The notes beneath the pieces are model-generated. The model saw only the letters and a program-made list of their open reading frames with translations. It was not told the DNA's origin and made no database searches. Of a DNA stretch of 43,521 bases, positions 24,374 through 39,262 are shown piece by piece. Position numbers and translations under genes: made by a program. Each line of letters opens with the position of its first letter. The first letter of the stretch is position 1. The stretch comes from a virus. Where the stretch lies: positions 1 to 43,521 of the IMG/VR virus record IMGVR_UViG_3300045988_124583; one strand, 5' to 3'.

Positions 24374-27300
24374 TTAGTGCCAAGGTGCATCGCTGATCGT
24401 GCTTTTCGCATAATCACATACGTAATACAAAGCGTCTTTTTGCTTCTTAGAAAGGTCAAGAGAATCGATATACTCAAGCACCTTTTCCTTTGCAGAAACA
24501 ATGACCTTGCCGCGTTCGTCCTTGTCAGACTTTGCGCTGCCCTTGAATTTCCATACGTCGTGGGCAATGTCAACGTCAATGCCCTTCGGCTCGCAATACT
24601 CGTTGTAAGCCGTTACGAACGAATAAGACACGCTTTCTCCGTCAAGGCTCGGGTGATCCTTGATAAAAGAATGCACGCTGACCTTCTCGGTCGCTTCCTC
24701 CTTGGTCATACCGCCGTAGCGCATATACATTTCGATAGCGCGGCTGGCCGTAATGTTGCCCGCAATAACCTCGTCGCCAATATCGTTGTACTCAATACCG
24801 GTCACGACGTAGGAGCTCCATTTGTTGACCGCTTTCGTGATATCCTCGCTGCTCTTGTCGGTGTACTTGGTAAGCATATCCGTTGCCTGCTGCTTGGAGA
24901 TCTCGCCGCCTCTGTACCACTCGCCAATCTTGCTCGTGATCTGCTCGGTCACTTGCTTTTCGGTATAGCCGTGGGATACAAGCTCGTTCATGGCTTCGTC
25001 AATGCTCGCACCGTTTCTGACTGCATCGTATACCTTGTCATAGCGGGAATATCCTTCGCCCGCTTCCCAACCCTGCATGGTGAAGTACGCCTCGTCCTCG
25101 TTGTCAACAAGCCCTTGTGCAAGCAGCTCCGCGATTGCTTCGTCAAACGTCAGATAGCCGTCCGCATACGCATACTTGATCTCGTTATAGTCGCCGGGAT
25201 CGTAGGATTTCACCTTAAGGCTCGGTGCCATTGCTCCGATGGTATTGTTCCAAATAGCAATAACCTCTCGCGTTGCCGCAGCCATAGGAAGCCCGACAAT
25301 GCCGGAAGCCGCCTGAAACAGCTTATAAATGCCGCCGTACCACGTGTAGTTGGTGTCCTCGCCCGCGATCTTCTGATAAATGATCTGCGTACCGTTGACG
25401 AGGCTATCCCACCATTGCATATATACGGACTGCGGAGGATTGCCGTAGGTGTCAACGCCGATAATGGAAAGCAGCTCTTTTGCAAGGTCGTAGAAGTCGG
25501 CCATGATCGGAAGCTTATTGATCGGCATGAGCTCGTCAATCGTGTTGCCGCCGAATGCTTCAAGCCATTTTTCAATGAACGTTTCGTATTCATCGTCGTC
25601 ACGCCAAGCGTCAGCAACAGCCTGAACCGCCGCCAACATCACGGCTGTCAAGCCGTATACGTACAGGGTGCGACTAATCATGTGCTTGTTCTTTTCCCAT
25701 GCCTGCTGCTTGCTCATACCGCGCTTCATGTCAGCGTTGTACTTATCAACAGCGTCAATCAGCATACTCGCGGTTGTCGTAGGCTCGCTCATAAACGAAC
25801 CGGTAAGACGCGCCACAACGCCCTTGCTACGCAAATACTGATTCTTGGTCAGCACGCTGTCAACGACCTGCGTCTTGTAGATCACGTCCTCAAAGAGCTT
25901 TGTAACCGCCTCGTAGAAGCCTGCATCACCGGGACGAAGCTTCTGCTTCTTGATCACTTCCTCTTTGCTTGCGCTCCACATAGCCGCCCAAGTAAGTGTG
26001 TCTGCCTGTTCTGCGCCCCACATACCCCATTCACCAACAGTTTGCTTCCAATCGGTGTTGTGCTTGATCGTCTCTGTCAGTCCTCGGGAAATGTTCACGT
26101 CATAGAAACCAAGAGATTTCCACGCGGCAATACCGCTGTGCTTCTGCATTTCCTCAATATTCTGCTTGATCGCTGCGGGCTTTAACTTCATGCCTCTCAT
26201 GATAGATCCGTAGTCTATCAAAAGAGCTGCACGAGAGATCGCCAAAGGCTGCTGCACGATCACGCGGAAATTGAATGCGACCTGTGCCATATTGTAGCGA
26301 CGGAGTGCGTTCATGCCAAACGTGTCTGTAGGAACGCCCTGCGCCTCTGTGCCGTTAAAGGCTTTGAGAATGCCCAGCACAAAATCCTCTGCATAGCCAC
26401 GTTTACCCGCGCCCGGTCGTGTTTCCTCGGTTACGCCATACACTCTTGCCATCTGCTCACGAACGCTGTCCTTCAAGTATCTGTTGCCCTCGCCGTCCTC
26501 GGTTTTCTGCTGATAGTTGAACCACTTGATCGCATCAAGAACGGGGAGAGCCATAGCGTTATACTGCGCCATACTCGCCATGTGATTTGCAAATACGTCG
26601 AAAATGCTGTAAACGATAATACGGTTATTTGCTTTTTCGTTACGGGACTTTGTAAAGCTCATATTGAGAAGTGCGTACAAGCTCGCCGCGCTCGGGTGTT
26701 CGTCTGCCGTTGCCTGCAAGTGTCTGCCGTCGGAGTTGATCGGGAAGTAGTGCTCGTTGGTAAACAGTTCCTCGCCAAAGCGTCTGACCGAAACCTCGTT
26801 GCCCCATGCGCCGCCTTGCTCTTGCATAAACTTCTGCATAGCGTCGGCAACCTCTTTCTGTCTATCAGTCAATGCGTTTACAATGATGGCTACGTCGCCC
26901 TCGTTCAGCGCGTGACCGTTATCGGAGATCTTCTTGCCGTTTGCTGCGGTATAGGTTGCTACGCGCATACCCTCGCCAAGCATGTGTCGCAAAGAGTCGG
27001 GCTGCTTGGAAAGCTCGTAAAGGGACATCATATCGGAAACGCGCATCTTAACTATGCCAGAGCTGATCCTGATATCCTTGGTTTCCTTTTCCCAAGCGTT
27101 GACCTCTTTCGTCGAATAAGTCTTTTCCGCAAACTCAACGATCTTTTGCGTATTGAAAGCAAGCCGTGCTTGACCGCGACGCAAGCCGTCGTAGATAGCC
27201 ACGCCACCTCTGCCGAAACGCTCAAAGGCGTATGCCGGGCGAATCTGCTGCCAAAATACAAAGTCGGTAGCTGCGTTCGATTTGCCGTTGTCGCTTCTCA

Positions 27301-30300
27301 ACTGAGAAAGCTCAAAGATCGTGTTGTCGCCTGCCTCGTAAACGTGCTGATACATAGCGTTTGCATGGAATTTGTTGATCTGCGTGATGTACGCTTTGAG
27401 AGTGCGTACAACACCGGAAAGCTGCTTCAGTTCCTCGCTCGTCATTCTGTTAATGACAAACTCACCGCTGTTTTGCTTGACGAGTACGTTCACCGCGTCA
27501 ATGAAATTCTGCAAGTCTGTCATAAAGCTCGGAGGGAGATCGGTATAGCCGGAATACAAGCCGTCCACGGTGATTTGCTCCTTGAGCGCACCGTTCAGAC
27601 CGTTCAGCCTCTTCACCAATTCCGCATCAGCTTTAGTCGCCTCACCGCCTCGGAGCTGCTGCTTACTCATGAAGTCGATAGAGTTAAGGAAAGGAATAAC
27701 GGAATTTTTCAGCACGTCGGGAATATGCTTCACAACGTCCTTATTGTTGGGCTTCATGACCCACGAGATCAGCTCGTTCACGTCAGTTGCGATACGCTCG
27801 CGGTACTTCTTGATAGCAGCCGCGTTCCTTGTGCGGTCGCGGTAGCGTTTCAGAATCTCCGCGTCGTGCGATCTCTGCTCGGTTTCAACGACCTTGCGCG
27901 CCTTTTTCAGCAAGCTCTCAAGCACCTTTTTGTCCTCAAGAGAGAGAACGTCGGCTTTTGCTTTATTGATCTGATCGTCAAGAACGTGCATACGGTTCAA
28001 GGTCTGCTTTGCCGCCTCGCGGTCAACCTTTGCGCCAAACTGCTGCTCCTTGTAAAGTCTGCCTTGCTCTGCTCGGTCGTCCTGCAAGCCTTCAAGCCTT
28101 GAAAGGCGGCTTTGGAAGATCTGCAAAGCGTCGCGCTCTGCATCGGTAAGATTGGTTGCCATAAGCTCGACAGCAGCCATTGCCAAAACCTCGCGGTCGC
28201 CCAGCGTGGTAGTGCGCTGCTGATAACTGATATCCGCGTCGGCGGTAGGCTGCTTATTGGAAGTGAGCTTGACTTGCTCCGCTGCCTTGATGATAACCAC
28301 GTCGCCGATCTCTTGGTGTGCGCCCACTCTTGCGTTGCGTACGATCACGCCGTCGTAATCGGCGTTATTCAGTCCGTCAGCAATGCTCGGATAGAGATTG
28401 CCGCCCGCAAGCGTTTTTCGATTAGCGTTGATCTCGTAAGGCTTGGTCACGTTGGCATATACTGCGTAGGTGCGGTTATTCGCACGGTTAACGATCTCTC
28501 CGGACTCACCCACGGGAATTCTCGCCTTAAAGGTGAAATCTTCAAGAGATACGCCGTCCTCTTCAAGAAGTCTGTTGCTTGCCTCTCTCAAACCGTCAAT
28601 CAGTTCTTCCTTGGTATAGTCCTCGTCCCTTGCGGCGTTGTTGCTGTCATAAGCGTCCCACGCGCGGAGAACGTCAGATACGGTGAACCTTTCGGGATTT
28701 TCGAACAGTTCGCCAAGCGTAGCCTCTCTTGAATGCTCCCACTCATAGCGGCCGTAGGCTTTCTGAATGCGCTTTCTTTCAGCGGAGTACTGCACTTCTT
28801 CAAGGCGGTCGTATTCGTCCCAGTCGCGGTTTTCGTTTGCCGCTTTAAGTTGTTTGCTGATTTCCGCATCGGTCAAATAACCCTCGGCACCGGGATTGTC
28901 CTTCTTGAACCTTTCAAGATCCTCTGCGCTGTCAAACCTCATATCGTCGTTAAGATAGAAGTTGCCACCGGTCGCCGTCTGAATATCGTCGGTTTCGTTA
29001 GGATCAAACAGCTTATGCTGATAATTTCCGGCATAAGAGTCTGCGTCCTTTTGGCTTGTAGTAAACCAATTACCGCCAAGCTTGCCACGGCTCGGCTCAA
29101 AAACGGTAAATCCTGCGTTTGCAGTACCGTGATACAGTACGAGAAGGTTTCCGTTCTTATCTCTTGCCTTGGAATCCTTGAAATAATCCGATTGAGCTGC
29201 CGTCAGCGCGTTACCGCTTGCGTCTTGCTCGCCGATATACGCGCGGCTCTGCTCCTGTACTGTGTCCTCGTCCACGCTGTCAAGGGACTGTTCCTCTTTA
29301 GGATTCAATATCTCCATAACCTCGTTATACCTCGCTCTCTTTTGGTCAAGCTCTGTCTGCTTTGCAAAAGGTGCTGCAATCAGCTTTTCCTGCTCTGCAA
29401 TATCCGTTTGCAACTCTGCAAGGTTATGTTGCCACAATTTCACCTTTTCGTCAATACTTTCGACAACGCCGATCAGATGATTGATCATATAGGCATGGTT
29501 TCCGGGATACGTTTTGAACGGATAGCCTTGCTTACCCACAAGCAAGCCGCCGATACCCTCGCTCGTTCTGATCACGCGAAGTTCAAAGCCTGCAAAGCTT
29601 CCCACCTTGGTATATCCGTCGGGGTTTGCCTTTGCCGCCGCTTCTGCCATAAGAGCAACGCCTGCTTCCTTCTTGTCGGCATACTTCTTGTTGCCAACGG
29701 TAATGGAGAATTTGCCCTCCGAATAGGTGTCAACGGTTGCAAGCATATCACTTTCGCCGTTTGCAATCTGCTTTTCAAGCGAAGCGATCTGACCACTATC
29801 ACGCAACAAACGCTCCTTTGCGGAACGAACCGCAGAAACGTGCGCTCTGTAAAGGCTTTCGAGCTTCTTAATATCGGTGTCAAGCTGTACCTGCTCCATG
29901 ATCAGCGGGCTGCCCGACGCAAGTGCCTTAACCTCGGCAGCGGAGAGAGTAACCTCGCCCGTGTCCTCGGCATCGCGTCCTACGCTGTCGCCATTCATGA
30001 TCTGATTGATGAAATTCTGCTTTCTTTCGAGAATATCCCAAAGACGCGCATCAAAGCTGCCCTCGGTAACGTAGGTGTATTTGGAAACTTCATCGTTGAT
30101 GTTGCCTTGTCTGAATGCGCGGCCGTCTCTCTGTTCCACGTCGCCCGGTCTCCAAGGTGCATCAAGGTGATGGATAGCAACGATACGCTTCTGCGCGTTC
30201 ATACCTACACCCATTTTGCCGGTAGAGCCGATAAGCACTCTTACCTTGCCGTCGTTCACGTCTGCAAACAGTTTCTTCTTCTTTTGGTCGGTGTCCGCAT

Positions 30301-33300
30301 CGTGAATAAAAGCAATTTCCTGTGCGGGAATGCCGCCCTGACGCAAGCGAGCTTTCAGATCGTCGTAAAGCTGTGCGCTTTCAACGTCCATTTCAAGATC
30401 ATCTGTCTCGGTCGTGTTATCGCTCTTGCCCTTAGGCGTTGCCATATCCAAGAAGATGATCTGTGTTCCCTTGATAGCCTTGCTGTTCTTATATTCTTCA
30501 AGAACGTTATCCGCACAACGGAAGATCTTGCACCCTTCCTCATAAGGCAAGGACGGGTCGATCATGCGCTGCGTATAGGATATCTTTCGTCCGTCCGACG
30601 TGATCTTCAGCATATTATCCACGGAAGGATCAATGTTCTTGATGTTGTCCGCGCGCTGTTCAAGCTCCTTCATAAAGTCCTGTTGGAACTGTCCGGGCTC
30701 GCATACAACCACGTTTACCTTGCCGCCTTTCATTTTCGGGATCTTCAAGCCCGGAATATCGGTCAGCACGTCCGCAAAGTTACGGAACAAGAGTTGAAGC
30801 TCGCTCATGTTCTTGAAGCGTGAAAAGCTCTGCTTTACGCGGTAGCCCTGTCCGCTCGGCTTGATCTCCACGCCGTTCACAACCTCGCCAAACTGCTTAG
30901 CCCACGCATCAAAGGTGGAAAGTCCAAGCTGATTCAAGAGGTCGGGTTGCAGATATTTCTGCATAATGTACATTTCCGACATAGAGTTCATGACGGGCGT
31001 TGCGGTTGCGAATACAATACCGCGTCCACCGTTGAGCTGCTGCAAATAGCGCACCTTGGTATAGAGGTCAAAGGCACGCTTGGAGCCGTCCTTATTGCCA
31101 AGCCCCGCGACGTTGGTCATAGACGTGGTGTAGAACAGGTTCTTGAAGTTGTGCGCCTCGTCCACAAAGAGCGAGTCAACGCCAAGCTGTTCAAAGTCGA
31201 TGTTCCCCTCGTCCTTCGCCTTGTCGGTCAGTTTGTCGATCTTTGTCTGCAAGGATTTGCGCTTCTTTTCAAGGTCCTTAACGGACAATGCCTTGTCGCC
31301 CTTGTCTGCTTTCGCGTCCTCAATAGCGGCAATCACGCTGTCTATCTGCTCCTGATAAAGCTGTCTTGTAAAATCGTCCGACATAGGCAGCTTCTCAAAC
31401 TGTTCGTAAGACACGATCACGGCGTCATACTCGCCGTTTGCAATTCGGTTCATAAAGACCTTGCGGTTAGATGCCGTAAAGTCAGAGGCTTCTGCCACGA
31501 GCAATTTTGCGGTAGGAAAGAAGTCGATAAATTCATTACCCCACTGTGCAACGAGTGATTTCGGAACGGCAAACATAGGCTTCTTGACAAGTCCAAGCTC
31601 CTTGAGCTTCATAGCTGCCGCAGCCATTTCGTAGGTTTTACCCGCACCAACCTTGTGCGCAAGCAGAGTATTACCGCCCGACGAAATAACGCGCTGTACT
31701 GCGTTTCTTTGGTGCGGACGCAGCGGTTTAAGCGCATTCGCGCCGTTTACGGTAAGATTTTCACCGTTGTATTTCGGCGTAACTACGGAATTGAATACCT
31801 CGTTATAAAGTGTAGCAAGCTCCGTGCGTCTTGCCTCGTCACGCCACAACCATTCCTGAAATTCCTTTTGAATGTTCTCGATCTTCTCGTTTGCCGCAGC
31901 GGTCGCGTCCTTATTGATCACGAAAGAGCCGTCGTCAAGCTTGTCCTTGATCACAACGCTCTTGCTGTTCAGCATAGCGTCAAAGAGTTCAAGGAAGGTT
32001 CTGCGGGAAGTGCCCCATTTTTGGGTGTTCGCCGCGTTGGTTTTGAGATAACGGTCCTTCAGCTCTACGGTGAAATTGCCCGTATCGGCGTTTCTCGTGA
32101 TATCAACGGCCTGTCTCCAGTCCGTATTGCGGCTGCCGAGCATATATGCCGCAAAGTCGGAATATACGCTGTTCGGAATCCAAGGAGTACCGGGGTTCAC
32201 GAAAATATCTTGATACCCAACGTCCTCGGGCATAACCGCTTTGAGTGCTTCCACGTTGTGAGCGTAGTCGCCGTCGATAGGCACAAGAGCCTCTGCATCG
32301 CGCAGCTTCGCACGCACGTTGCCCGAAAGGTAAACCTCTGCCGCTTCAAGATCTCCGTTGCGGTTCTTGAAAGCCTTGCGGCTGTCGATCAGTTCTCTCG
32401 TTACGTCCGCTTCGGCAATGCCTGTCAGCTTTGCGATAAGAGCGGTGTCAACGCCGCCCGTTTGGTTGACGGAAACGATAAGTCCCTCCGACACGTCCTT
32501 TGCAGACGTTACGGTGCGGTTGGGAGCAATCGTGTTCTTGGAGAAGATATCAGCCTTGGTCGCCTTTTTGGTTTCGGGATTCCAATTTTCAAGAGCGAAA
32601 AGAGAATAGCGGTCGGGATCTTCGATAAAAGCGTTTCTGTTCGCCTGCGAATTGATAAAGCCGTATTTCTTTACAAAAGCGTCATAAGCCTTGTTGAGTG
32701 CCGTGCGAGCCTTTTTGATCTCGGTTTCATTGAGCCCCTGCTGCTGATAGTTCATCAGATTGCGTGCGAGATCACGGATTTCAAGCATAGCCGAAATACG
32801 TTCTGCCGCGCCCTTGGCTTTGTCTACCTCAACAAGATCGCCGCCCTTGTTCTGATATACCTTTCCGTCCTTGACCACAAGTCCGTTTTCCTTGGTCTTT
32901 TTATTCGCTCTCTCCACGGCAAAGTTGGTTTTCTCACGGCTGAGTGTCGCGGGATATTCCATCTTTCCATTGATATGAGAGAACGCCTCGCGGATTTGAT
33001 CGGCAAGGCTGCCTTTGCCTTCAAGTGCCTTATAGGTCAGAGAACCGCTGCGGTACATACCGCCGTCCATCGTAGGCGTACCAAGTACCATTTCGGGGTG
33101 ATTCTCAAAATAGGTGTTGATATATGCGCCGTTGTAGCTCTCCTTTTCAAGCCTTGTCCACGGTGCTTCAAGGAAGTCCTCACCCGCGTAAGCCGTGTTC
33201 TCTGCTCTCTTTTTGAGAACGAGAATGTCCGTTACAACCTCAGTACCCGCATTTCCCTTGAAAGCGGAATCGGGCAAACGAATTGCTCCGAGCAGATCAG

Positions 33301-36300
33301 CTCTCTGCATAATGTAGCGGCGCACCGTGTTGTCCTTTGCGTTCATCGTGTAAGAGGACGTGATAAACATCACAATACCGCCCGGACGAACCTTGTCAAG
33401 CGACTTGGCAAAGAAGTAGTTGTGAATGGCACTCGTCACCTTTTTGGGGTATTTCTTATCCGTAATGGCGTAGTTACCGAAAGGAACGTTACTGATAATC
33501 ACGTCCATGTAATTATCGGGAATGTTGGCTTTCTCAAAGCCCTGAATGCGCACGTCAGCGTTCGGATAAAGGTATTTTGCTATCAAGCCCGTAATGCCGT
33601 CAAGCTCAACCATAGTCCAACTCTTGACCTTTGCGCTCATTTCTGTAGGCATAGCACCCACAAAGTTACCTACACCGGAGGAAGGTTCAAGCATACGGCC
33701 GCCGTTAAAGCCAAGCTTCGCAAGTCCGTCATACATAGCCTTGATCACGGATATATCGGTATAGTGAGCATTAAGAGTAGAGCCTCTTGCAGATGCGTAT
33801 TCCTCTTCGGTCAGCAGCTCCTTCAGCTCGGTGAATTCCTTTGCCCATTCAGTTTTTCTCTGATCGAAAGCGTTTGCAAGACCGCCCCAACCAACGTACT
33901 TGGAAAGGATCTGCTGCTCTGCCTCGGTCGCATATCTGTTCTCGGCTTCAAGCTGCTTTACAAGCTTGATCGCCTCGATATTCGCCTTATACCTTGCCTT
34001 TTCACCGTTCGGCAGGGAAAGGCTATCCCCGATTACAAAGTTACGCCCCTTGGGCTGCTCGGTGGATTGCTCCGCGATCTGCTCGGTGACTTCCTCGTGA
34101 AGCTTTTCAGCCTCGGGAGTTAGCTCATCATTTCGTCGTAGATCTCCGCTCTGACGATCTCCATCGCCTGATCTACCGCCAGTCCCTGTTCCGTTATCAG
34201 CATCAGCGCCATTTCGTCCAGCCTCTTGTCCTCGCTCGACAGCGTCTCCCACAGAGTCCCCTCGCGGTGCATTTCCTTGTACATCTTCGGCTTGAACTTC
34301 ATCCAGTACTCGTGAATCTCCCTGCCGATCGGCGTCAGACTGCTGTACTGCGCCTCGGTTATCAACATTTTCGACATTCGGTTTTACCTCCTGTTTGGAT
34401 TGCTTTTTATTTGAAAAACTCTTTAATTTGGACGGTTTTGTGTTTGTAACCTCAGTTACGGCTTTCATCGGAAGCAAAAAGCCTACGACGTTGCCCTCGG
34501 CATCAACTGCTTTGAGAATTTTGTAATTCTTCATATAGTCGCCGACGTAAAGCAGATTTCCGTCAAGCCTTGACAAATACTTTTTGTCAAACACAGCCTT
34601 GGTTTTCCCATCAAGATCAAAAACATAAACCGTTTTGTCACCGAGAGTGCCTTCGAGCGGTGCATTGGTCAGCAAAATGTTAGCGTTTTCAAGTGCATCA
34701 GAAACCGGCTTTGGAAGGGCGTTTTCTTCCATGGTGCCCGAAAACTCCAACCTTGCCCAACCGACCATTTCTTCCGTTGCTCTCAAAGCAAAATTGCCAT
34801 CAGAGAGGAACAGCACGCCATTGCTATGCAAAACATATCTGCGTCCTGCGCGCTTCAACCAAGGAGAATACTTCTTCTTGTATTCCTTTTCGCTTTCCTC
34901 GATAGACTTGGTATCGGTCTTAACCTCTGCCACAGGACTTTCTACCGCATCTTTCGGTGCGTTTGCTGCCTTAAACTGCTCGTGAATATCGGACAGCTCC
35001 TTGATATAGGCGTCGAAGTCGTTATATGCATTTGGAATCCAATCGAGATCAAATTTCGAATCCGAAATCTGACCACTTACGGATATGCCGTAAGCAAACG
35101 CATTGGTTTCGTCATACACGTGCATAAATCGTCTGCGTTTGATAGCACGGTCTCGTTCACTATCGGTATCATCAATAGTAACGCCGTCGAGCGTATAGCC
35201 GACATGATCCAACATCATCTGTAAAAGTCTCATTGCTTCTTTGGAGGACATATTCATCATATCGGACGTGCGCTCTACAAACTCCAAATACGGCTTGAAG
35301 TCTTTGCGATGCATAGCGTGCGTTGCCTCGTGAGTGGGGATAGCATTCAGATCATCCGTGTCTATATCCTCGGAAATAAAGACTGCTCCGTCGGGCGTGG
35401 TGACCGCAGGCGATTCTGTTATTCTCCATTCGGCAGCCTTTACGATATGGCACTCTATGCCGTATTCATTCTGAAGAACGTCTTGCGCTTTGAACAAATC
35501 AGAGCCTTGTGCCGGATCGATGTAATTATTGGGGTCTAAAAGCCATTTGTTGTTGCTTAATCCTCTATTTGATCTTTGAACAGATTCTGCTTCTGAAATG
35601 CTTTCTCCCTTTTCTCCCACAGTTTCCGATACTCGGGATCTGTTGCCATCTGTTTCTCGTGTTCCTGCCGCTCTTTTCGCAGCATCTGAACGATCTCCTC
35701 TTGCGTCAATGGCTTCTTGTTCTGCATGGTTAATACCTCCGTCAGTATTGGTTTCAATATCCGTCGCCACCGTCATTTGATAATTCGTAACCGCTTCCAC
35801 GGCGACCTTGTCAAACAGCTTGACGATATTCTCGACGTATTTTACGCTCTCACCGATCTGCTCCTTGAGCGCGTTTGCCTCGCGGGAGCTGTTCGGGTCA
35901 ATGGAAGAGAAGTACGCTTTCAGATCTGCGACAAACTCCTTGAGCTTTTCAAGCAGCTTTTCAAATATGGTTTTGTGATTGTTCGCAAGCTCCTCTACGA
36001 AATTCGCATCGGGCAGAATGTCGGTCATAGCCTCGGCAACCACCTCGCGGCTTGCCTTGTCATAGGTCATGCCCTCATTCTGTGCCATTTTCGTATCAAT
36101 GAGGTCTTCTACGTTCTCTCCACGCTCGGTAAGGGTATCAAATACTACCTTTCTGAACTCATTATACCATATCGGATTCCATTTTTCAATAAAATGGGTA
36201 AATTCGTGCGAAAAAGTGCGCATCATGGTGTATTTTGCAAGATCATCTACGCTCTTGATATCCGCAATACCTGCGTTGATGTCAATGTAGATGGTGTCCT

Positions 36301-39262
36301 CGCTCCACTTGAACCTGCCTTGCGCTCCCTCAAACTGGCCGTCTGCATTTGCCTCGGACTTATACAGCACGATATCAATGCCGGTCGCTTCCGCATAGGT
36401 GGTAAGCAGCTTGTAAGCCTTGCCCTGCGTATCGTTGAAAGTCTTGCGCAGATCCTCGATCTTAACGCCCTCACCCCTTACCGTGCCTTTTCTGCGCCCG
36501 GTCTTGCCGTTTGCCTTGGCTTTGTTCGCCTCTGCCTGTGCTTTGGCGGTATTGGAGGAAGCGTCTGCGCCTGCCGCGTGTGCAAGCTCGCGCTGACTCT
36601 CGGTAAGATATGCGGTCGCGCCGCTGTTCATAGCGTAGGAGAGTGAAACGCCGCTCTTACCCATATTGTAAGCCGCAGAATATGCCGCGTCGTATTTTGC
36701 CACGTCCTGTCCCTCGGTATAGGTGGAGATCATAGCCCCTGCCTGCGCGCCGTATTTCTTCGCCGCGCTCTCCAAGGAAGCGGTGCTTTCGTCCGTGCGA
36801 ACGACCTCGTCAGATGCCTCAAATTTCGCTTTTGCGGGGCTTTCTTTTGCGGTGGCATTCTCGGTCACGCCCTGCACATTATCTGCGGCGGGCTGCGCCT
36901 CTGCTTCCGTGGTGGCTTTGTGACCGACATTTGTGTCGGGCGCAAGCTCTGCGGGCTTTGCCGCCTTTGCCACGCTTGCAGCCTCGGTAGGTGCGTTGGC
37001 GGTTGCCGTTTGCGGGCGTGCTTCCGCTTCAAGGCTTTGCAGCAGCCTGCCGTATTCCTCTGCATTGATTCTGTCCGTGCCGATTTCCTGCGCCCATGTG
37101 GAGAACGGAGATCCTGATTTAATGGTATCAGGATTCAGCTCCCAAGCCACTCTTTCAGCATATTTGCTGGTCTTCAACATCAGCTTATCAGCCGCACTGA
37201 GTGTCTCGCCTGCAACCTGCTTTGCAAGAGCCTTTGCAATGGTCTTTACGTTGCCTTTTTCCCCAAGCGCGGTAAGGCGGCTTTCTGCTGCGCTCTGAAT
37301 AGTAGCCACGTCATTCTCATACATAGCAGCCTCGTTCTGCTGTACGAGCCTGCCGATCTGACTGTTGGAAAGGGATTTGCCGCTTTCAACCCTCGACTGC
37401 ATTCTCTTAGCAAACCTGTTGTTCGGGTCGATCTCCAAGGCTTCTGTTGCAAGAGCCGCACCGAGTTGGCTTTTTGAAAGAGATTGGCTGCTGTCAACAT
37501 TGTTCTGCATTACCTTCGCGAGCTTACTGCTCGGGTCGATCTTCGTACCGTGATACTTTTGCATTTCCGCGCCCTGCATTGCGTTGCCGACGGTATTGAT
37601 CATAGCACCGCCGCTACCCATGATACCACCCGAAATAGCACCACCGAGCACATCAAGCCCGAACTCCTTTAATTTGTCGGCAGCATATTTACCGGCAGCG
37701 GCTCTTTCGTCAAGACCATACTCCTGCATAATGATTTGGATTTCGCGCTTGATTTTGCTTTCGTCTCCGCTAAGTACAAGATCCACAAGATCAACCAAGG
37801 TGTTTCCTACGTTGCTGAGACCTTCTTCAAGACCCTCTGCAAGCAGGTTTTCGAGAATGTATTTTCCTGCGCTGCCTTTAAGAGCCTTAATGTTAAACAA
37901 AGCGTCAATGCCGATTTTCTCGGTTGCCACCTCAATAGCACCTGCGGCAGTTCCGAGCAAAAAGGCTTGATTGTCCGAAAGTCCCAAATCCTTTGTGGCA
38001 ACAACGGTATCGGCTGCCGCACCTGTGCCCATAATGGCAAGGGATACCGCTTGATTGCCGCCGGTTATGGCAGTCGTGAAAAGGAAGTCACCCATGCTCA
38101 TACCGGTTTGGTAGGCAAAGCTGCCAACGCCACCCCAATTTGCTTCTACCGTCTCGGAAACCTCATTGCGGATCGCGCTGTTCATATGCACAAACTTGTT
38201 ATATCCCTCGTTCTGATCGATGCTGCCGTCCTCGGCGTAGTCTGCGAGCTGTCCGATGTAGGAAATACCCTTAAGCGGACTTGTGACAACGCTGAACACA
38301 GAAGTACCAACGGGATCTTCTTTTGCGAGTTCAGCCCACTTTGTTTCTTCTGCTTTTCTCTGTCTGCGGTCAAGATCGTCTGTGATAAGATCGATATACT
38401 CGAATGCCGCGTCTCTTCCTTGCGTAGCGTAAAGGTAATTGAAGATCTTGATTTCATCATCTTCCATTTCCAAACGCTCACCATCGGTATACCCATACAG
38501 AGCAGCACCGGTTTGAATATTCTGCGCAGACTTCATATTTATTGCATCTTGGTTGCGGTTGATGTAGTCATAATCAATATCATCAAAACCGTCTTCGGTG
38601 TACGCTCCCGTAAACCAATTGCGCTTCTCGCCACCGACATAGGTAGATTTGTATTCGCTATTTTCCGCAAAGTCAGATGCCGTAGAAAGGAGGTCGTATC
38701 TATGAGTATTCAGCCATTCCTTTTCTTCGCCGTCATTGAGCTTGCCAAGCGCAGATACGATTTCCTCATAGCTCTTGCCGCTGTATTTGTTCTGATAGTC
38801 GTAATACCTTTTCGCGGTGTAATATTCGTCCTCGCTCGCCCATTGCGACCAATATTCAACGTCCTTGGTAGAGGCGTCCAAAACGCTCTCCTGCGCTTTC
38901 AGGTTGCCGTCAAGAGCCTTGAATACGGAGCTGACGTAATCATCGCCAAAGAAGTCCTTGTACTGCGTCAGCACGCTTTTAATGCTTTCCGCTTCCTTTT
39001 GGAAATTCTCTCTCTGTGTAGTAACGGTGTTCAGCCAATCGGACGCATCGGTTCTGAACTTGGTGTTGTTTGCGTTAAAGCGGTTCTGCGCGTTAGAGAT
39101 ATAGTGATTGTTATTTGTAAGCCACGTGTTCACGCGGTTGGAGATTTCCTTGCCGACTGTTTCTACGTTCTTATACAAATATCGGTTTTCAACGCCGTTA
39201 TAGAGAGTATTCGATTTTTCTTCTTCCTCTCTTTTCTTCTTGTATCTATCTTCTACGCCCAT
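24374..39262 (-). CDS. Giant polyvalent protein (4,962 aa): hydrophobic Gly-rich N-region, two zincin motifs, N6-adenine MTase, SNF2 helicase, ART-like domain, TM/repeat C-region; candidate virion cargo/ejection protein
   Basis: Uninterrupted ORF. GGAGG lies 7 nt upstream of ATG 39262 and a terminator follows the stop. The motifs were read directly and are listed in the sub-features. Confidence 0.85.
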   Translation of the reverse strand: MGVEDRYKKKREEEEKSNTLYNGVENRYLYKNVETVGKEISNRVNTWLTNNNHYISNAQNRFNANNTKFRTDASDWLNTVTTQRENFQKEAESIKSVLTQYKDFFGDDYVSSVFKALDGNLKAQESVLDASTKDVEYWSQWASEDEYYTAKRYYDYQNKYSGKSYEEIVSALGKLNDGEEKEWLNTHRYDLLSTASDFAENSEYKSTYVGGEKRNWFTGAYTEDGFDDIDYDYINRNQDAINMKSAQNIQTGAALYGYTDGERLEMEDDEIKIFNYLYATQGRDAAFEYIDLITDDLDRRQRKAEETKWAELAKEDPVGTSVFSVVTSPLKGISYIGQLADYAEDGSIDQNEGYNKFVHMNSAIRNEVSETVEANWGGVGSFAYQTGMSMGDFLFTTAITGGNQAVSLAIMGTGAAADTVVATKDLGLSDNQAFLLGTAAGAIEVATEKIGIDALFNIKALKGSAGKYILENLLAEGLEEGLSNVGNTLVDLVDLVLSGDESKIKREIQIIMQEYGLDERAAAGKYAADKLKEFGLDVLGGAISGGIMGSGGAMINTVGNAMQGAEMQKYHGTKIDPSSKLAKVMQNNVDSSQSLSKSQLGAALATEALEIDPNNRFAKRMQSRVESGKSLSNSQIGRLVQQNEAAMYENDVATIQSAAESRLTALGEKGNVKTIAKALAKQVAGETLSAADKLMLKTSKYAERVAWELNPDTIKSGSPFSTWAQEIGTDRINAEEYGRLLQSLEAEARPQTATANAPTEAASVAKAAKPAELAPDTNVGHKATTEAEAQPAADNVQGVTENATAKESPAKAKFEASDEVVRTDESTASLESAAKKYGAQAGAMISTYTEGQDVAKYDAAYSAAYNMGKSGVSLSYAMNSGATAYLTESQRELAHAAGADASSNTAKAQAEANKAKANGKTGRRKGTVRGEGVKIEDLRKTFNDTQGKAYKLLTTYAEATGIDIVLYKSEANADGQFEGAQGRFKWSEDTIYIDINAGIADIKSVDDLAKYTMMRTFSHEFTHFIEKWNPIWYNEFRKVVFDTLTERGENVEDLIDTKMAQNEGMTYDKASREVVAEAMTDILPDANFVEELANNHKTIFEKLLEKLKEFVADLKAYFSSIDPNSSREANALKEQIGESVKYVENIVKLFDKVAVEAVTNYQMTVATDIETNTDGGINHAEQEAIDARGDRSDAAKRAAGTRETDGNRSRVSETVGEKGESISEAESVQRSNRGLSNNKWLLDPNNYIDPAQGSDLFKAQDVLQNEYGIECHIVKAAEWRITESPAVTTPDGAVFISEDIDTDDLNAIPTHEATHAMHRKDFKPYLEFVERTSDMMNMSSKEAMRLLQMMLDHVGYTLDGVTIDDTDSERDRAIKRRRFMHVYDETNAFAYGISVSGQISDSKFDLDWIPNAYNDFDAYIKELSDIHEQFKAANAPKDAVESPVAEVKTDTKSIEESEKEYKKKYSPWLKRAGRRYVLHSNGVLFLSDGNFALRATEEMVGWARLEFSGTMEENALPKPVSDALENANILLTNAPLEGTLGDKTVYVFDLDGKTKAVFDKKYLSRLDGNLLYVGDYMKNYKILKAVDAEGNVVGFLLPMKAVTEVTNTKPSKLKSFSNKKQSKQEVKPNVENVDNRGAVQQSDADRQGDSRVLDEVQAEDVQGNAPRGDSVGDAVERGQEAGRNGADADNGTGTGGRSGDGDRQSGDLRRNDELTPEAEKLHEEVTEQIAEQSTEQPKGRNFVIGDSLSLPNGEKARYKANIEAIKLVKQLEAENRYATEAEQQILSKYVGWGGLANAFDQRKTEWAKEFTELKELLTEEEYASARGSTLNAHYTDISVIKAMYDGLAKLGFNGGRMLEPSSGVGNFVGAMPTEMSAKVKSWTMVELDGITGLIAKYLYPNADVRIQGFEKANIPDNYMDVIISNVPFGNYAITDKKYPKKVTSAIHNYFFAKSLDKVRPGGIVMFITSSYTMNAKDNTVRRYIMQRADLLGAIRLPDSAFKGNAGTEVVTDILVLKKRAENTAYAGEDFLEAPWTRLEKESYNGAYINTYFENHPEMVLGTPTMDGGMYRSGSLTYKALEGKGSLADQIREAFSHINGKMEYPATLSREKTNFAVERANKKTKENGLVVKDGKVYQNKGGDLVEVDKAKGAAERISAMLEIRDLARNLMNYQQQGLNETEIKKARTALNKAYDAFVKKYGFINSQANRNAFIEDPDRYSLFALENWNPETKKATKADIFSKNTIAPNRTVTSAKDVSEGLIVSVNQTGGVDTALIAKLTGIAEADVTRELIDSRKAFKNRNGDLEAAEVYLSGNVRAKLRDAEALVPIDGDYAHNVEALKAVMPEDVGYQDIFVNPGTPWIPNSVYSDFAAYMLGSRNTDWRQAVDITRNADTGNFTVELKDRYLKTNAANTQKWGTSRRTFLELFDAMLNSKSVVIKDKLDDGSFVINKDATAAANEKIENIQKEFQEWLWRDEARRTELATLYNEVFNSVVTPKYNGENLTVNGANALKPLRPHQRNAVQRVISSGGNTLLAHKVGAGKTYEMAAAAMKLKELGLVKKPMFAVPKSLVAQWGNEFIDFFPTAKLLVAEASDFTASNRKVFMNRIANGEYDAVIVSYEQFEKLPMSDDFTRQLYQEQIDSVIAAIEDAKADKGDKALSVKDLEKKRKSLQTKIDKLTDKAKDEGNIDFEQLGVDSLFVDEAHNFKNLFYTTSMTNVAGLGNKDGSKRAFDLYTKVRYLQQLNGGRGIVFATATPVMNSMSEMYIMQKYLQPDLLNQLGLSTFDAWAKQFGEVVNGVEIKPSGQGYRVKQSFSRFKNMSELQLLFRNFADVLTDIPGLKIPKMKGGKVNVVVCEPGQFQQDFMKELEQRADNIKNIDPSVDNMLKITSDGRKISYTQRMIDPSLPYEEGCKIFRCADNVLEEYKNSKAIKGTQIIFLDMATPKGKSDNTTETDDLEMDVESAQLYDDLKARLRQGGIPAQEIAFIHDADTDQKKKKLFADVNDGKVRVLIGSTGKMGVGMNAQKRIVAIHHLDAPWRPGDVEQRDGRAFRQGNINDEVSKYTYVTEGSFDARLWDILERKQNFINQIMNGDSVGRDAEDTGEVTLSAAEVKALASGSPLIMEQVQLDTDIKKLESLYRAHVSAVRSAKERLLRDSGQIASLEKQIANGESDMLATVDTYSEGKFSITVGNKKYADKKEAGVALMAEAAAKANPDGYTKVGSFAGFELRVIRTSEGIGGLLVGKQGYPFKTYPGNHAYMINHLIGVVESIDEKVKLWQHNLAELQTDIAEQEKLIAAPFAKQTELDQKRARYNEVMEILNPKEEQSLDSVDEDTVQEQSRAYIGEQDASGNALTAAQSDYFKDSKARDKNGNLLVLYHGTANAGFTVFEPSRGKLGGNWFTTSQKDADSYAGNYQHKLFDPNETDDIQTATGGNFYLNDDMRFDSAEDLERFKKDNPGAEGYLTDAEISKQLKAANENRDWDEYDRLEEVQYSAERKRIQKAYGRYEWEHSREATLGELFENPERFTVSDVLRAWDAYDSNNAARDEDYTKEELIDGLREASNRLLEEDGVSLEDFTFKARIPVGESGEIVNRANNRTYAVYANVTKPYEINANRKTLAGGNLYPSIADGLNNADYDGVIVRNARVGAHQEIGDVVIIKAAEQVKLTSNKQPTADADISYQQRTTTLGDREVLAMAAVELMATNLTDAERDALQIFQSRLSRLEGLQDDRAEQGRLYKEQQFGAKVDREAAKQTLNRMHVLDDQINKAKADVLSLEDKKVLESLLKKARKVVETEQRSHDAEILKRYRDRTRNAAAIKKYRERIATDVNELISWVMKPNNKDVVKHIPDVLKNSVIPFLNSIDFMSKQQLRGGEATKADAELVKRLNGLNGALKEQITVDGLYSGYTDLPPSFMTDLQNFIDAVNVLVKQNSGEFVINRMTSEELKQLSGVVRTLKAYITQINKFHANAMYQHVYEAGDNTIFELSQLRSDNGKSNAATDFVFWQQIRPAYAFERFGRGGVAIYDGLRRGQARLAFNTQKIVEFAEKTYSTKEVNAWEKETKDIRISSGIVKMRVSDMMSLYELSKQPDSLRHMLGEGMRVATYTAANGKKISDNGHALNEGDVAIIVNALTDRQKEVADAMQKFMQEQGGAWGNEVSVRRFGEELFTNEHYFPINSDGRHLQATADEHPSAASLYALLNMSFTKSRNEKANNRIIVYSIFDVFANHMASMAQYNAMALPVLDAIKWFNYQQKTEDGEGNRYLKDSVREQMARVYGVTEETRPGAGKRGYAEDFVLGILKAFNGTEAQGVPTDTFGMNALRRYNMAQVAFNFRVIVQQPLAISRAALLIDYGSIMRGMKLKPAAIKQNIEEMQKHSGIAAWKSLGFYDVNISRGLTETIKHNTDWKQTVGEWGMWGAEQADTLTWAAMWSASKEEVIKKQKLRPGDAGFYEAVTKLFEDVIYKTQVVDSVLTKNQYLRSKGVVARLTGSFMSEPTTTASMLIDAVDKYNADMKRGMSKQQAWEKNKHMISRTLYVYGLTAVMLAAVQAVADAWRDDDEYETFIEKWLEAFGGNTIDELMPINKLPIMADFYDLAKELLSIIGVDTYGNPPQSVYMQWWDSLVNGTQIIYQKIAGEDTNYTWYGGIYKLFQAASGIVGLPMAAATREVIAIWNNTIGAMAPSLKVKSYDPGDYNEIKYAYADGYLTFDEAIAELLAQGLVDNEDEAYFTMQGWEAGEGYSRYDKVYDAVRNGASIDEAMNELVSHGYTEKQVTEQITSKIGEWYRGGEISKQQATDMLTKYTDKSSEDITKAVNKWSSYVVTGIEYNDIGDEVIAGNITASRAIEMYMRYGGMTKEEATEKVSVHSFIKDHPSLDGESVSYSFVTAYNEYCEPKGIDVDIAHDVWKFKGSAKSDKDERGKVIVSAKEKVLEYIDSLDLSKKQKDALYYVCDYAKSTISDAPWH
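24670..25165 (-). other. Giant protein C-terminal tandem helical repeats (about 4 x ~35 aa)
   Basis: Repeat units: GYLTFDEAIAELLAQGLVDNEDEAYFTMQGW, NGASIDEAMNELVSHGYTEKQVTEQITSKIGEWY, GEISKQQATDMLTKYTDKSSEDITKAVNKWS, GNITASRAIEMYMRYGGMTKEEATEKVSVHSF. Confidence 0.6.
28255..29190 (-). other. Giant protein: ART-like (polyvalent-protein ADP-ribosyltransferase-like) domain with a large insert
   Basis: NLLVLYHGTANAGFTVFEPS...GGNWFTTSQKDADSYAG (YHGT at 29123-29134), then after ~170 aa RTYAVYANVTKPYEI...DYDGVIVRNARVGAHQEIGDVVIIKAAEQVKL. Assignment is from memory of the family pattern. Confidence 0.45.
29990..31723 (-). other. Giant protein: SNF2-family helicase domain
   Basis: LRPHQ (31723), GAGKT (31634-31648), DEAH (31151-31162), ATATPVMNS, GSTGKMGVGMNAQ, QRDGRAFRQGN (30101-30133). 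Confidence 0.85.
33200..34050 (-). other. Giant protein: N6-adenine DNA methyltransferase domain
   Basis: Motif I MLEPSSGVGNF (33662-33694) and motif IV NVPFG (33476-33490). It is preceded by the ...ILSKYVGWGGL... lead-in that I associate with methylase-helicase fusion proteins. Confidence 0.8.
34120..34377 (-). CDS. Embedded +1-frame ORF E2 (85 aa), TnpV-like small protein candidate
   Basis: AGGAGG lies 9 nt upstream of ATG 34377. The protein sequence looks globular (MSKMLITEAQYSSLTPIGREIHEYWMKFKPKMYKEMHREGTLWETL...). It lies wholly inside the giant ORF, where the main frame is low-complexity. Confidence 0.55.
   Translation of the reverse strand: MSKMLITEAQYSSLTPIGREIHEYWMKFKPKMYKEMHREGTLWETLSSEDKRLDEMALMLITEQGLAVDQAMEIVRAEIYDEMMS
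35318..35332 (-). other. Giant protein: second HExxH motif (THEATHAMH)
   Basis: In-frame CAC GAG GCA ACG CAC (aa 1311-1315). Confidence 0.6.
35557..35727 (-). CDS. Embedded +1-frame ORF E1 (56 aa)
   Basis: GGAGG lies 8 nt upstream of ATG 35727. Translation is MQNKKPLTQEEIVQMLRKERQEHEKQMATDPEYRKLWEKREKAFQKQNLFKDQIED. It lies inside the giant ORF, where the main frame is low-complexity. Confidence 0.5.
   Translation of the reverse strand: MQNKKPLTQEEIVQMLRKERQEHEKQMATDPEYRKLWEKREKAFQKQNLFKDQIED
35800..36490 (-). other. Giant protein: zincin-like metallopeptidase domain (polyvalent-protein MPTase-like)
   Basis: ...DTIYIDINAGIADIKSVDDLAKYTMMRTFSHEFTHFIEKW... with HEFTH at 36194-36208 (aa 1019-1023). 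Confidence 0.6.
37595..38135 (-). other. Giant protein: Gly/Ala-rich hydrophobic (membrane-active-like) segments
   Basis: WGGVGSFAYQTGMSMGDFLFTTAITGGNQAVSLAIMGTGAAADTVVA...LLGTAAGAIEVA and VLGGAISGGIMGSGGAMINTVGNAMQG. Confidence 0.55.

Follow-up and report, generated by a model that had tools for sequence, protein, structure and literature searches.

A probable dual-coding region in an inter-domain linker of a giant phage polyvalent-protein gene

In lambda Rz/Rz1-type arrangements a small gene that has a ribosome-binding site of its own is nested, on the same strand and in the +1 frame, entirely within a larger one, and neither product is dispensable. In viral overprinting one of two overlapping frames is ancestral; the other is new and its product disordered. 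A further relevant class is the polyvalent proteins of phages and conjugative elements, whose peptidase domains have been proposed to process the polyprotein (Iyer et al. 2017, PMC5512222). That paper makes no mention of overlapping ORFs, frameshifts or linkers.

The small frame examined here, ORF1, shares with Rz/Rz1 its enclosure by a bigger same-strand gene, its +1 phase and a ribosome-binding site of its own. It differs in that the host gene encodes a 15-kb multi-domain polyprotein, only an inter-domain linker is overlapped, the host frame appears free of amino-acid constraint there and the arrangement occurs twice in one gene; moreover the ORF1 product is predicted to be soluble and helical, not a lipoprotein, and a lysis context is absent. 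As in overprinting, one frame is ordered and conserved and the other is low-complexity and fast-evolving, but with the usual polarity turned round. Here it is the short embedded frame that looks ancestral, since free-standing homologues exist and the second embedded frame (ORF2) is TnpV-like, and the long host frame looks like the newcomer, apparently derived from read-through fusion of neighbouring genes and not from the birth of a new ORF. The likeness to the polyvalent proteins (PMC5512222) lies in the combination of methyltransferase, SNF2 helicase, ART-PolyVal and HExxH metallopeptidase-like domains within one giant phage protein.

The giant gene and the embedded ORF1

The window (the whole 43,521-nt stretch that was analysed) belongs to a temperate phage that has terminase, portal and serine integrase genes. 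Its giant ORF (24374..39262, minus strand, 4,962 aa) comprises an N-terminal region, two HExxH domains, an Eco57I-like methyltransferase, a SNF2/ResIII helicase, ART-PolyVal and a long C-terminal part. Pfam identified ART-PolyVal at 41.3 bits (cut-off 31.2) together with SNF2-rel_dom, ResIII and Helicase_C; Eco57I, at 25.2 bits, fell just below its cut-off of 25.3. Judged from its sequence, the product is a polyvalent protein: it carries many unrelated effector domains, ART-PolyVal among them, in a phage context.

The giant protein contains just two HExxH motifs, at residues 1019 (HEFTH) and 1311 (HEATH), and the motif is invariant in the families of both segments. The first zincin-like domain (35777..36415, minus strand, residues 950-1162, HEFTH at 36194-36208) is the upstream neighbour of ORF1 in the window; it represents a conserved family, with H9, E10 and H13 invariant in alignment A1. 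The second (34955..35545, minus strand, residues 1240-1436, HEATH at 35318-35332) starts a few codons after the ORF1 stop and was modelled by AF2 with a pLDDT of 86.6. The two segments have no match in Pfam, and a Foldseek search with them returned nothing at E<0.001; anthrax lethal factor appeared with TMq 0.40-0.42 and an E of about 2.

ORF1 (35557..35727, minus strand) is 171 nt long, 56 codons plus TAA, and sits wholly within 24374-39262 on the same strand in the +1 frame. Read along the minus strand, a Shine-Dalgarno GGAGG (35740-35736) is followed by the 8-nt spacer TATTAACC, the ATG at 35727-35725 and, at the far end, the TAA at 35559-35557. The same GGAGG (feature 35736..35740, minus strand) is read in the giant frame as Gly-Gly within N-T-D-G-G-I. 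The encoded product, MQNKKPLTQEEIVQMLRKERQEHEKQMATDPEYRKLWEKREKAFQKQNLFKDQIED, contains the core motif M-A-TDPEYRK-x-WEK. It is predicted to be a two-helix protein; the AF2 model (pLDDT 83.7) places helices at residues 9-29 and 31-54. An Rfam scan of 33900-36300 gave no match and RNA folding around the ORF1 start did not differ from that of shuffled sequences (z=-0.99); an RNA element is therefore not indicated at ORF1. Counts from a promoter and terminator scan were not above those of shuffles.

Over the same bases the giant frame forms a linker (35555..35731, minus strand, residues 1178-1236) that reads NHAEQEAIDARGDRSDAAKRAAGTRETDGNRSRVSETVGEKGESISEAESVQRSNRGLS; it is low-complexity and stop-free, seemingly without amino-acid-level constraint, and has hydrophobic residues at 6 of its 59 positions. 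A sequence-only reading of this DNA had described the low-complexity linker, the GGAGG 8 nt before ATG 35727 and the 56-aa +1 frame, and all of these descriptions hold. Our recount also reproduces its codon argument: seven ORF1 codons end in T, 24 begin with AA, AG or GA, and none of the seven precedes one of the 24. The same reading gave the segment after ORF1 no independent start. We likewise found none in the window and none conserved in relatives; the segments beyond ORF1 lack separate starts, and the main frame has no conserved start near the ORF1 stop. Most independent assemblies have the giant frame open on both flanks of the ORF1 module for over 1,000 codons.

Conservation and selection in the two frames

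Relatives of ORF1 were collected from phage contigs and Oscillospiraceae-type MAGs, all of them metagenomic, giving 33 distinct copies; these are interrelated, so the counts are not of independent events. The ATG is kept in all 33, GGAGG in 30, and a spacer of 8-9 nt in 30 of the 33. Wherever the giant frame reads Gly-Gly at the Shine-Dalgarno, the first Gly codon is GGA among the copies listed. Relative to the frame of the zincin, ORF1 is always shifted by +1. In three loci (L013, L065 and L076) a stop codon immediately precedes the ATG, and ORF1 is thus not an extension of the upstream frame. The start, GGAGG, stop and integrity of the ORF are retained where the flanking second zincin-like domain is only 30-40% identical; the C-terminal tails of the small protein vary. 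The small frame is conserved across the 33 distinct copies, as expected if the proposed SD-led ORF is genuine. In GenBank phages, tblastn with both small proteins found no match, and hence no isolate phage carrying either ORF; a nucleotide search with the 3-kb region found only two short matches there, both in unannotated phage records (98-133 nt at 71-76% identity), and PLSDB plasmids yielded none.

Selection was examined on a frame-agnostic nucleotide alignment by binning pairwise differences according to ORF1 codon position, with bootstrapping. Differences at positions 1, 2 and 3 were 0.456, 0.400 and 0.545 (bootstrap P<=0.001); the 600 nt 3′ of ORF1 follow the phase of the giant frame instead (0.44, 0.35, 0.62). 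Over ORF1, the pN/pS ratios of the small, giant and third frames were 0.52, 1.16 and 0.93, respectively. Read in the giant frame, the linker is least variable at the third codon position. These substitution patterns indicate that ORF1 is under purifying selection in its own frame and the giant frame is not.

Codon usage points the same way. When the giant gene was scanned in 50-codon windows, the +1 frame beat the main frame in 82 of 4,912, every one of them on ORF1 (gene nt 3519-3573) or ORF2 (4842-5046); the +2 frame won nowhere. The scan shows no coding signal elsewhere, in agreement with the earlier dismissal of the remaining out-of-frame ORFs as junk. Open +1 stretches of 55 codons or more number 23 in this gene, and such a stretch alone is therefore not unusual.

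The giant frame is stop-free in all 32 embedded or array copies of ORF1, and the only copy with a giant-frame stop is the free-standing L115. Against a null of random synonymous recoding of the ORF1 protein with phage codon usage, which leaves the main frame open in about 0.5% of cases per sequence, 25 of 25 copies have no stop (about 0.1 of 25 expected open). The third frame over ORF1 has 2-8 stops in 24 of the 25, and the T content of the region is 10-18%. Read-through thus appears to be selected as well. The conserved openness sustains the earlier suggestion that the main frame is deliberately kept open.

Relatives, cassette exchange and a second embedded gene

Where the second HExxH domain is present, ORF1 lies directly upstream of it in 24 of 24 loci and in 20 of 21 further ones; the module's upstream neighbour varies between loci. 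The sequence-only reading had placed ORF1 at the junction of two zincins. Its position at a domain boundary stands, but the tie is to the downstream HExxH domain and not to both. Functional coupling is not obligatory, since one locus (L100) has the domain without ORF1 and some free-standing copies (L115, L118) have ORF1 without the domain.

An exchangeable cassette (34398..35716, minus strand) runs from the body of ORF1 through the second HExxH domain to the domain after it. In L006, a phage otherwise about 95% identical, this cassette is replaced by a divergent allele. Nucleotide identity to the window is 95.3% as far as gene nt 3546, 12 nt inside ORF1; beyond that point only three short matches remain (74-86% over 82-124 nt), until identity resumes at gene nt 4866, just 5′ of ORF2. 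The break points of the exchange coincide with the starts of the embedded genes. We also note that in L122 the second zincin-like protein apparently begins at its own ATG, 36 nt past the ORF1 stop. From the sequence comparisons, ORF1 and the downstream HExxH domain appear to be one inherited cassette.

Free-standing copies of ORF1 start at the same ATG. One of them, L115, is accompanied by promoter-like, Shine-Dalgarno and terminator-like signals and has no downstream partner. Intact tandem arrays of ORF1 are found beside decayed zincin remnants, and in loci with a decayed giant gene the small ORFs remain intact. On L114, a contig whose giant frame stays open over 2,070 codons, the JGI gene caller called the two small ORFs and no gene in the giant frame across them. 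Clustering of called proteins at 50% identity gave 109 clusters, mostly of 46-66 aa, and the ORF1 product appears by sequence to belong to an unannotated family of two-helix proteins of 45-70 aa with an ETDPEYRK core. Scans of 29 family members against Pfam, PHROGs, NCBIfam and PADLOC yielded scattered sub-threshold matches and no consistent family, and Foldseek with the ORF1 protein model found no match in the PDB.

ORF2 (34120..34377, minus strand, 85 aa) is TnpV-like, also lies in the +1 frame and is preceded by AGGAGG at 34387-34392. For both embedded ORFs, 39262 minus the start position is 1 mod 3, as had been noted earlier. Pfam TnpV (PF14198) scores 20.3 bits on the window copy, below the cut-off of 27; across the family it is found at E<0.01 in 15 of 23 members, the best at 1.5e-6. 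Copies of ORF2 in 33 distinct loci have no main-frame stops, 5-15 third-frame stops and a periodicity of 0.365/0.296/0.443, so that the embedded +1 pattern seen at ORF1 does recur at a second boundary. The two small families are unrelated by hhalign (probability 0.2%). A jackhmmer profile of ORF2 drifted onto the first zincin-like domain; hhalign gave that pair a probability of only 55%.

Dual coding, rival readings and possible function

We consider it very probable, on this evidence, that the ORF1 region is truly dual-coding; this judgement covers the dual coding and not the function of ORF1. The 171 nt would give rise to a separately initiated 56-aa protein from their own GGAGG-8 nt-ATG in the +1 frame, and in frame 0 the same bases would supply a simple stop-free linker that lets ribosomes on the giant gene continue past the first HExxH domain to the second. 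For the small protein, selection would act on the amino-acid sequence, and in the giant frame on openness only. The most likely origin is a two-gene unit, a small gene and a zincin-like gene, absorbed into the polyprotein gene by read-through.

A unit of that kind could have left only a relic, an ORF1 once independent, swallowed at the fusion and now untranslated, with its coding signal owed to descent. The resemblance of the cassette to a former two-gene unit and the apparent separate ATG of the second zincin in L122 would fit this idea. Yet it is unlikely, as the start, GGAGG, stop and ORF have survived at 30-40% flanking identity, the small-frame pN/pS is 0.52, an untranslated ORF would gather stops as the third frame does (2-8), and the small ORFs outlast the giant gene where that has decayed. 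It is distinctly unlikely that translation of ORF1 matters but its product does not, the SD-ATG serving to load or pause ribosomes internally and so to tune translation or folding of what follows in the 15-kb ORF. Such a device would account for the domain-boundary position and the conserved strong Shine-Dalgarno inside a gene; it would not account for amino-acid-level selection and a conserved motif spanning the whole peptide, nor for a free-standing copy (L115) with promoter-like and terminator-like signals and no partner downstream. Re-initiation is also improbable given that no main-frame start is conserved near the ORF1 stop, and there is no significant RNA structure around the ORF1 start. 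The ORF1 stop is overlain in the giant frame by an NTA or NTG codon (Leu, Ile or Val) with no conserved start after it, which likewise speaks against re-initiation.

The giant ORF might instead be three or more genes, its continuous frame an assembly artefact or chance. The protein-database gene caller did give many 300-800 aa fragments for relatives, and JGI broke the giant ORF on L114, but most of those fragments derive from short contigs. We regard this reading as very unlikely, because in most independent assemblies the open frame runs on past the module by more than 1,000 codons in each direction, openness across the module has a chance of about 0.5% per sequence and is nevertheless seen in 25 of 25, and the downstream segments lack starts of their own. 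In prfB an SD-like element is followed by a change of frame, and a programmed +1 frameshift near GGAGG, ending at TAA 35557, would produce a truncated N-terminal protein with a 56-aa tail. The window would allow it, the +1 frame being open for 15 codons 5′ of the ATG. The invariant ATG (33/33) and the +1-frame stops directly before it in L013, L065 and L076 make this highly improbable, as do the use of the same ATG by free-standing copies and the lack of an evident conserved shift site in the sequences examined. A -1 frameshift from ORF1 back into the giant frame is disfavoured too, as the 3′ ends inspected show no conserved slippery site and the C-terminal tails vary. That ORF1 is a functionless chance ORF in a T-poor, purine-rich linker could draw on the T content of 10-18% and the 23 long open +1 stretches. 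Its likelihood is negligible; it is already refuted by conservation, substitution phase, pN/pS and codon usage, and the third frame of the same T-poor DNA has 2-8 stops.

If the dual-coding reading is right, the ORF1 protein would be made in the infected cell from late mRNA and might act with or on the adjacent zincin-like domain. The best PDB match of the ORF1 family profile is the 61-aa ng_epsilon1 antitoxin (6EPG) of the gonococcal epsilon/zeta system, over only about 30 residues, with weak scores (hmmsearch E=7e-5 (A5) and 8.2e-4 (A3); hhalign 73%, E=3.1e-5 over 29 columns); BLASTP gave 11 identities in 23 positions. The two proteins are of similar size (61 and 56 aa) and have in common the core R-x-M-x-TD-x-x-[YF]-RK-x-x-EKR. 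The gonococcal epsilon-1 gene lies directly upstream of its target, a zeta toxin gene, and ORF1 is likewise directly 5′ of a partner, in its case the HExxH domain and in the antitoxin's the toxin it controls. The epsilon-1 antitoxin has no globular fold and binds the toxin in the form of extended helices (PMC5923241), which fits the two-helix prediction for ORF1. The differences are that the partner of ORF1 is an HExxH domain and not a zeta P-loop kinase, that ORF1 is overlapped and not separate, that toxicity and its neutralisation are both hypothetical for the ORF1 pair, and that the sequence likeness is marginal. We looked for a zeta-toxin P-loop kinase gene directly downstream of ORF1 and ruled it out: the giant protein has no Zeta_toxin match in Pfam and the 3′ neighbour is the HExxH domain.

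Our leading, though tentative, suggestion is that the ORF1 protein could be a non-packaged inhibitor or partner that silences the second HExxH domain until the polyprotein is in the capsid or the next host. More speculative is a general scheme in which polyvalent genes are built by operon read-through and small +1 regulator genes persist as linkers, each encoding the non-packaged inhibitor, or other partner, that belongs to the effector beside it. The effector would be inactive in the producing cell and armed once separated from its inhibitor in the capsid or new cell. If true, the second zincin-like domain would have an epsilon-antitoxin-like helical protein and the next module a TnpV-like one, amounting to toxin-antitoxin logic in two reading frames of one gene. 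The ORF1 region would also offer a handle on how peptidase and effector domains of polyvalent proteins stay checked before delivery.

Linker-embedded small genes would add a layer to the polyvalent-protein class. Gene callers forbid fully embedded ORFs, and the ORF1 family is unannotated where it is most conserved, inside polyvalent-protein genes. For a dsDNA phage the sequence evidence of dual coding is unusually clean: the phase of selection switches at the borders of the 171 nt, and openness is kept against odds of about 200 to 1. The break points at embedded-gene starts suggest how 15-kb polyprotein genes may be assembled and shuffled. One substitution that is silent for the giant protein is enough to abolish the ORF1 start codon, which makes the hypothesis directly testable.

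An ORF embedded in a polyvalent-protein gene

The window carries terminase, portal, serine integrase and internal virion protein genes and belongs to a temperate phage. Its giant ORF (4,962 codons, 24374-39262, minus strand) encodes a product matching ART-PolyVal, SNF2/ResIII/Helicase_C and Eco57I-like methyltransferase domains; in this phage context the gene therefore qualifies as a 'polyvalent protein' as PMC5512222 uses the term. The HExxH motif occurs exactly twice in the product, at aa 1019 and aa 1311, one in each of two zincin-like domains. The small ORF lies in the +1 frame of the giant ORF and runs for 56 codons on the minus strand, from ATG 35727 to TAA 35559-35557, with a GGAGG Shine-Dalgarno sequence (35740-35736, minus strand) 8 nt before the ATG. 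A sequence-only reading had described this ORF and its GGAGG, the peptide and the giant-frame read-out over the same bases, seven T-ending codons and 24 beginning with AA, AG or GA, and a relative frame common to both embedded ORFs; all of these are correct on the minus-strand sequence.

The giant gene contains 23 open +1 stretches of at least 55 codons, hence the openness of the small ORF alone is not special, and the segment is T-poor. A codon-usage model was trained on the remainder of the giant gene, and 50-codon windows were scored with it. Only 82 of 4,912 windows favoured the +1 frame over the main frame, and these lay without exception at gene nt 3519-3573 (the small ORF) or 4842-5046 (the second embedded ORF); none favoured the +2 frame. 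When the small protein was held fixed and synonymous codons were redrawn from the phage's usage, the giant frame was stop-free in about 0.5% of recodings, 2.8% at most.

Very long ORFs (602, 506, 696 and 822 aa) also lie antisense to the giant gene (24377-34123, plus strand), at only ~50% GC. They arise because TTA, CTA and TCA are nearly absent from the giant frame (6, 2 and 14 of 4,963 codons) and are probably shadow ORFs rather than genes. A strong promoter-like site (TTGAAA, 17 nt, TATAAT preceded by TG; 11/12 positions matching) is located within the first HExxH domain at 36161-36189 (minus strand), around 430 nt upstream of the small gene; in the same scan promoter-like sites in the region were no more numerous than in shuffles.

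Conserved start signals and frame-specific selection

As sole query the window peptide retrieved one database protein (P0001, 65 aa, 57% identity). Relatives were then sought through the flanking domains: an alignment of the first HExxH domain found 38 viral contigs and 49 contigs from Oscillospiraceae, Eubacteriales and Faecousia MAGs, and one of the second domain found 21 further viral loci. Of the first 87 loci, about 25 gave homologues with a small-peptide profile, each of them +1 to the zincin frame. Reading the +1 frame of the other loci with the second domain revealed a more divergent subtype in the same place, ending ...FAESFLLLLDDTEE. Among 33 distinct copies, all metagenomic and phylogenetically related, the ATG start and a terminating stop codon are present in 33/33, and GGAGG and a spacer of 8-9 nt each in 30/33. 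In three loci (L013, L065, L076) a +1-frame stop immediately precedes the ATG, which means that the small ORF cannot continue a frame opened further upstream.

The copies were aligned as nucleotides with MAFFT without regard to frame, and their pairwise differences at codon positions 1, 2 and 3 of the small ORF were 0.456, 0.400 and 0.545; by bootstrapping, P ≤ 0.001 for position 3 not being the most variable. The third position of the giant frame is the least variable over the small ORF, and just downstream the giant-frame pattern returns (0.44, 0.35, 0.62). With pS near saturation, pN/pS was 0.52 in the small frame, 1.16 in the giant frame and 0.93 in the third. The giant frame has no stop across the small ORF in 25/25 copies, against about 0.1 open frames of 25 expected from the recoding test, and the third frame has 2-8 stops in 24/25. 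The sole copy with a giant-frame stop, in L115, now lies outside any giant gene. Constraint therefore acts on both frames, the small one for protein sequence and the giant one only for continuity. Both the main-frame openness and the small-frame conservation on which the sequence-only reading had staked its claim are thus found in the relatives.

As judged from these comparisons, the same 171 bases encode two proteins, with conserved start signals and frame-specific selection. The codon-usage scan, the recoding test, the conserved copies and the selection pattern together exclude a chance ORF, in keeping with the earlier view that the repeated pattern argues against coincidence. An untranslated relic is unlikely, as ATG, Shine-Dalgarno sequence and ORF are retained where the flanking proteins share only 30-40% identity. 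Were the SD-ATG pair a ribosome-loading device whose product is irrelevant, the amino-acid conservation and the free-standing copies would be left unaccounted for. Division of the giant ORF into several genes is contradicted by its forced openness and by the lack of starts for the downstream segments, which the sequence-only reading had also pointed out for the segment that follows. Entry into the small ORF by +1 frameshifting conflicts with an ATG that never varies and with the stops immediately ahead of it. An RNA element in place of a gene found no support, with neither an Rfam match nor an unusual RNA structure.

Phages are known to have embedded +1 genes, lambda Rz/Rz1 being an example. 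Full-text literature searches gave nothing relevant, and no account of small genes within polyvalent-protein linkers came to light; the paper defining polyvalent proteins never mentions overlap, frameshift or linkers (PMC5512222).

Cassette exchange, the second embedded ORF and free-standing copies

The giant-frame neighbour downstream of the small ORF is the second HExxH domain in 24/24 loci, and in 20/21 further loci the small ORF sits directly before that domain. The upstream neighbour is variable (the end of the first HExxH domain, a KFRW-type domain, a MutS-I-like GFPYH domain and others), and in most loci no stop interrupts the giant frame for more than 1,000 codons on either side. The exception, L100 (1940-3466), is the only locus with the second domain and no small ORF upstream; here the domain belongs to a 509-aa ORF and is preceded by a different N-terminal region. 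The window and L006 share 95.3% nucleotide identity until 12 nt into the small ORF. Identity then collapses over the body of the ORF, the second HExxH domain and the domain after it, where three short matches remain (74-86% over 82-124 nt), and resumes at gene nt 4866, shortly before the second embedded ORF starts. From the constant downstream partner and this exchange, the small gene travels with the second HExxH domain as one cassette, and the break points fall at embedded-gene starts, as at ordinary phage gene borders. We note that the mosaic replacement spans 34398-35716 (minus strand) against L006 4517-5541 in phages otherwise ~95% identical, and that L006 has about 229 extra nt just after the second embedded ORF.

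This second ORF (34120-34377, minus strand; 85 aa, TnpV-like) is also in the +1 frame, with AGGAGG at 34387-34392. ORF and Shine-Dalgarno sequence are conserved in 33 distinct loci, with no giant-frame stops versus 5-15 in the third frame and an alternative-frame periodicity of 0.365, 0.296 and 0.443, so the repeated pattern proposed earlier holds. TnpV matches at E<0.01 were obtained for 15/23 members (best 1.5e-6), the window copy being under the Pfam cut-off. The giant-frame sequel is usually a methyltransferase module, with a different domain in L006 and L044. Because TnpV-like proteins occur as ordinary free-standing genes, the small frame would be the older here and the giant-frame linker the newcomer. 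The family also aligns to the helix pair of the first HExxH domain (35777-36415, minus strand; HEFTHF...ASREVVAE versus ElHdYW...A.EvaRAEi; hhalign probability 55%, E=1.2e-4, 68 columns), and jackhmmer with its profile drifted to the same region. TnpV could conceivably be a catalytically dead relative of that domain's zincin core.

Profile searches returned 33 small called proteins of the 56-aa family from a 5.8-billion protein set and 109 clusters, mostly of 46-66 aa, from a 1.84-billion representative set. Between two and four intact tandem copies are present in L001-L005 and L118-L121 (240-bp period in L001), each with its own Shine-Dalgarno sequence (L001 9470-10420; L118 3209-3838; L119 3525-3968). 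Truncated pieces of the first HExxH domain border the arrays; L118 and L119 also have a gene for a large serine recombinase nearby, and their giant frame is closed. In these arrays the small genes have outlived the giant gene. In L115 and L116 a 54-aa copy with no zincin domain follows a terminase small-subunit gene, with a TTGCGG...TATAAT promoter-like site, the same SD context and two terminator-like hairpins. In L122 the protein with the second HExxH domain seemingly starts at its own ATG, 36 nt past the small ORF's stop. In L114 the JGI caller annotated 61-aa and 85-aa ORFs and no giant-frame gene across them, despite 2,070 open giant-frame codons. Copies directly after a terminase small-subunit gene (PF16677, phrog_606) occur in two unrelated contexts (L115 5294-6250, L116, L122 567-1260 and L123).

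The small protein and its possible partner

Pfam, PHROG, NCBIfam and PADLOC contained no fitting family. AlphaFold2 with the family alignment predicted two helices (residues 9-29 and 31-54, pLDDT 83.7) broken at an invariant T-D-P, and Foldseek found no structural neighbour for this model. The only notable PDB sequence match of the family profile is the 61-aa epsilon-1 antitoxin of Neisseria gonorrhoeae (6EPG; E=7e-5 and 8.2e-4 with two family alignments, A5 and A3, hhalign probability 73%), over a short similarity. Both proteins contain R-x-M-x-TD-x-x-[YF]-RK-x-x-EKR. The gonococcal gene is directly upstream of its zeta toxin gene, and the antitoxin binds the toxin as an extended two-helix stretch over the active site (PMC5923241). 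With so short a match, and an HExxH domain rather than a zeta toxin as partner, we treat the likeness as a lead and not as membership. The zincin fold of that domain is itself putative: its AlphaFold2 model (pLDDT 86.6) had nothing below E=0.001 in Foldseek, anthrax lethal factor appearing at E ~2 and TMq 0.4.

Late in infection ribosomes would translate a long mRNA from its 5′ start, across the linker, to give the polyprotein, and some would also load at GGAGG-ATG to make the 56-aa protein. Strict synteny, cassette behaviour and the antitoxin-like features make it most likely that the small protein acts with the adjacent zincin-like domain. That it does so as a non-packaged inhibitor is a tentative proposal, with the odds rather against it. 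Other roles are possible, such as that of a packaging helper, since a terminase small-subunit gene precedes several of the free copies. The family members P0081, P0087, P0104, P0118 and P0119 include tandem duplications fused in one ORF (127 and 110 aa) as well as proteins with an unrelated N-terminal domain of ~95 aa. The GIY-YIG-like P0106 has repeated ADPEFRKK motifs, which may be a chance resemblance.
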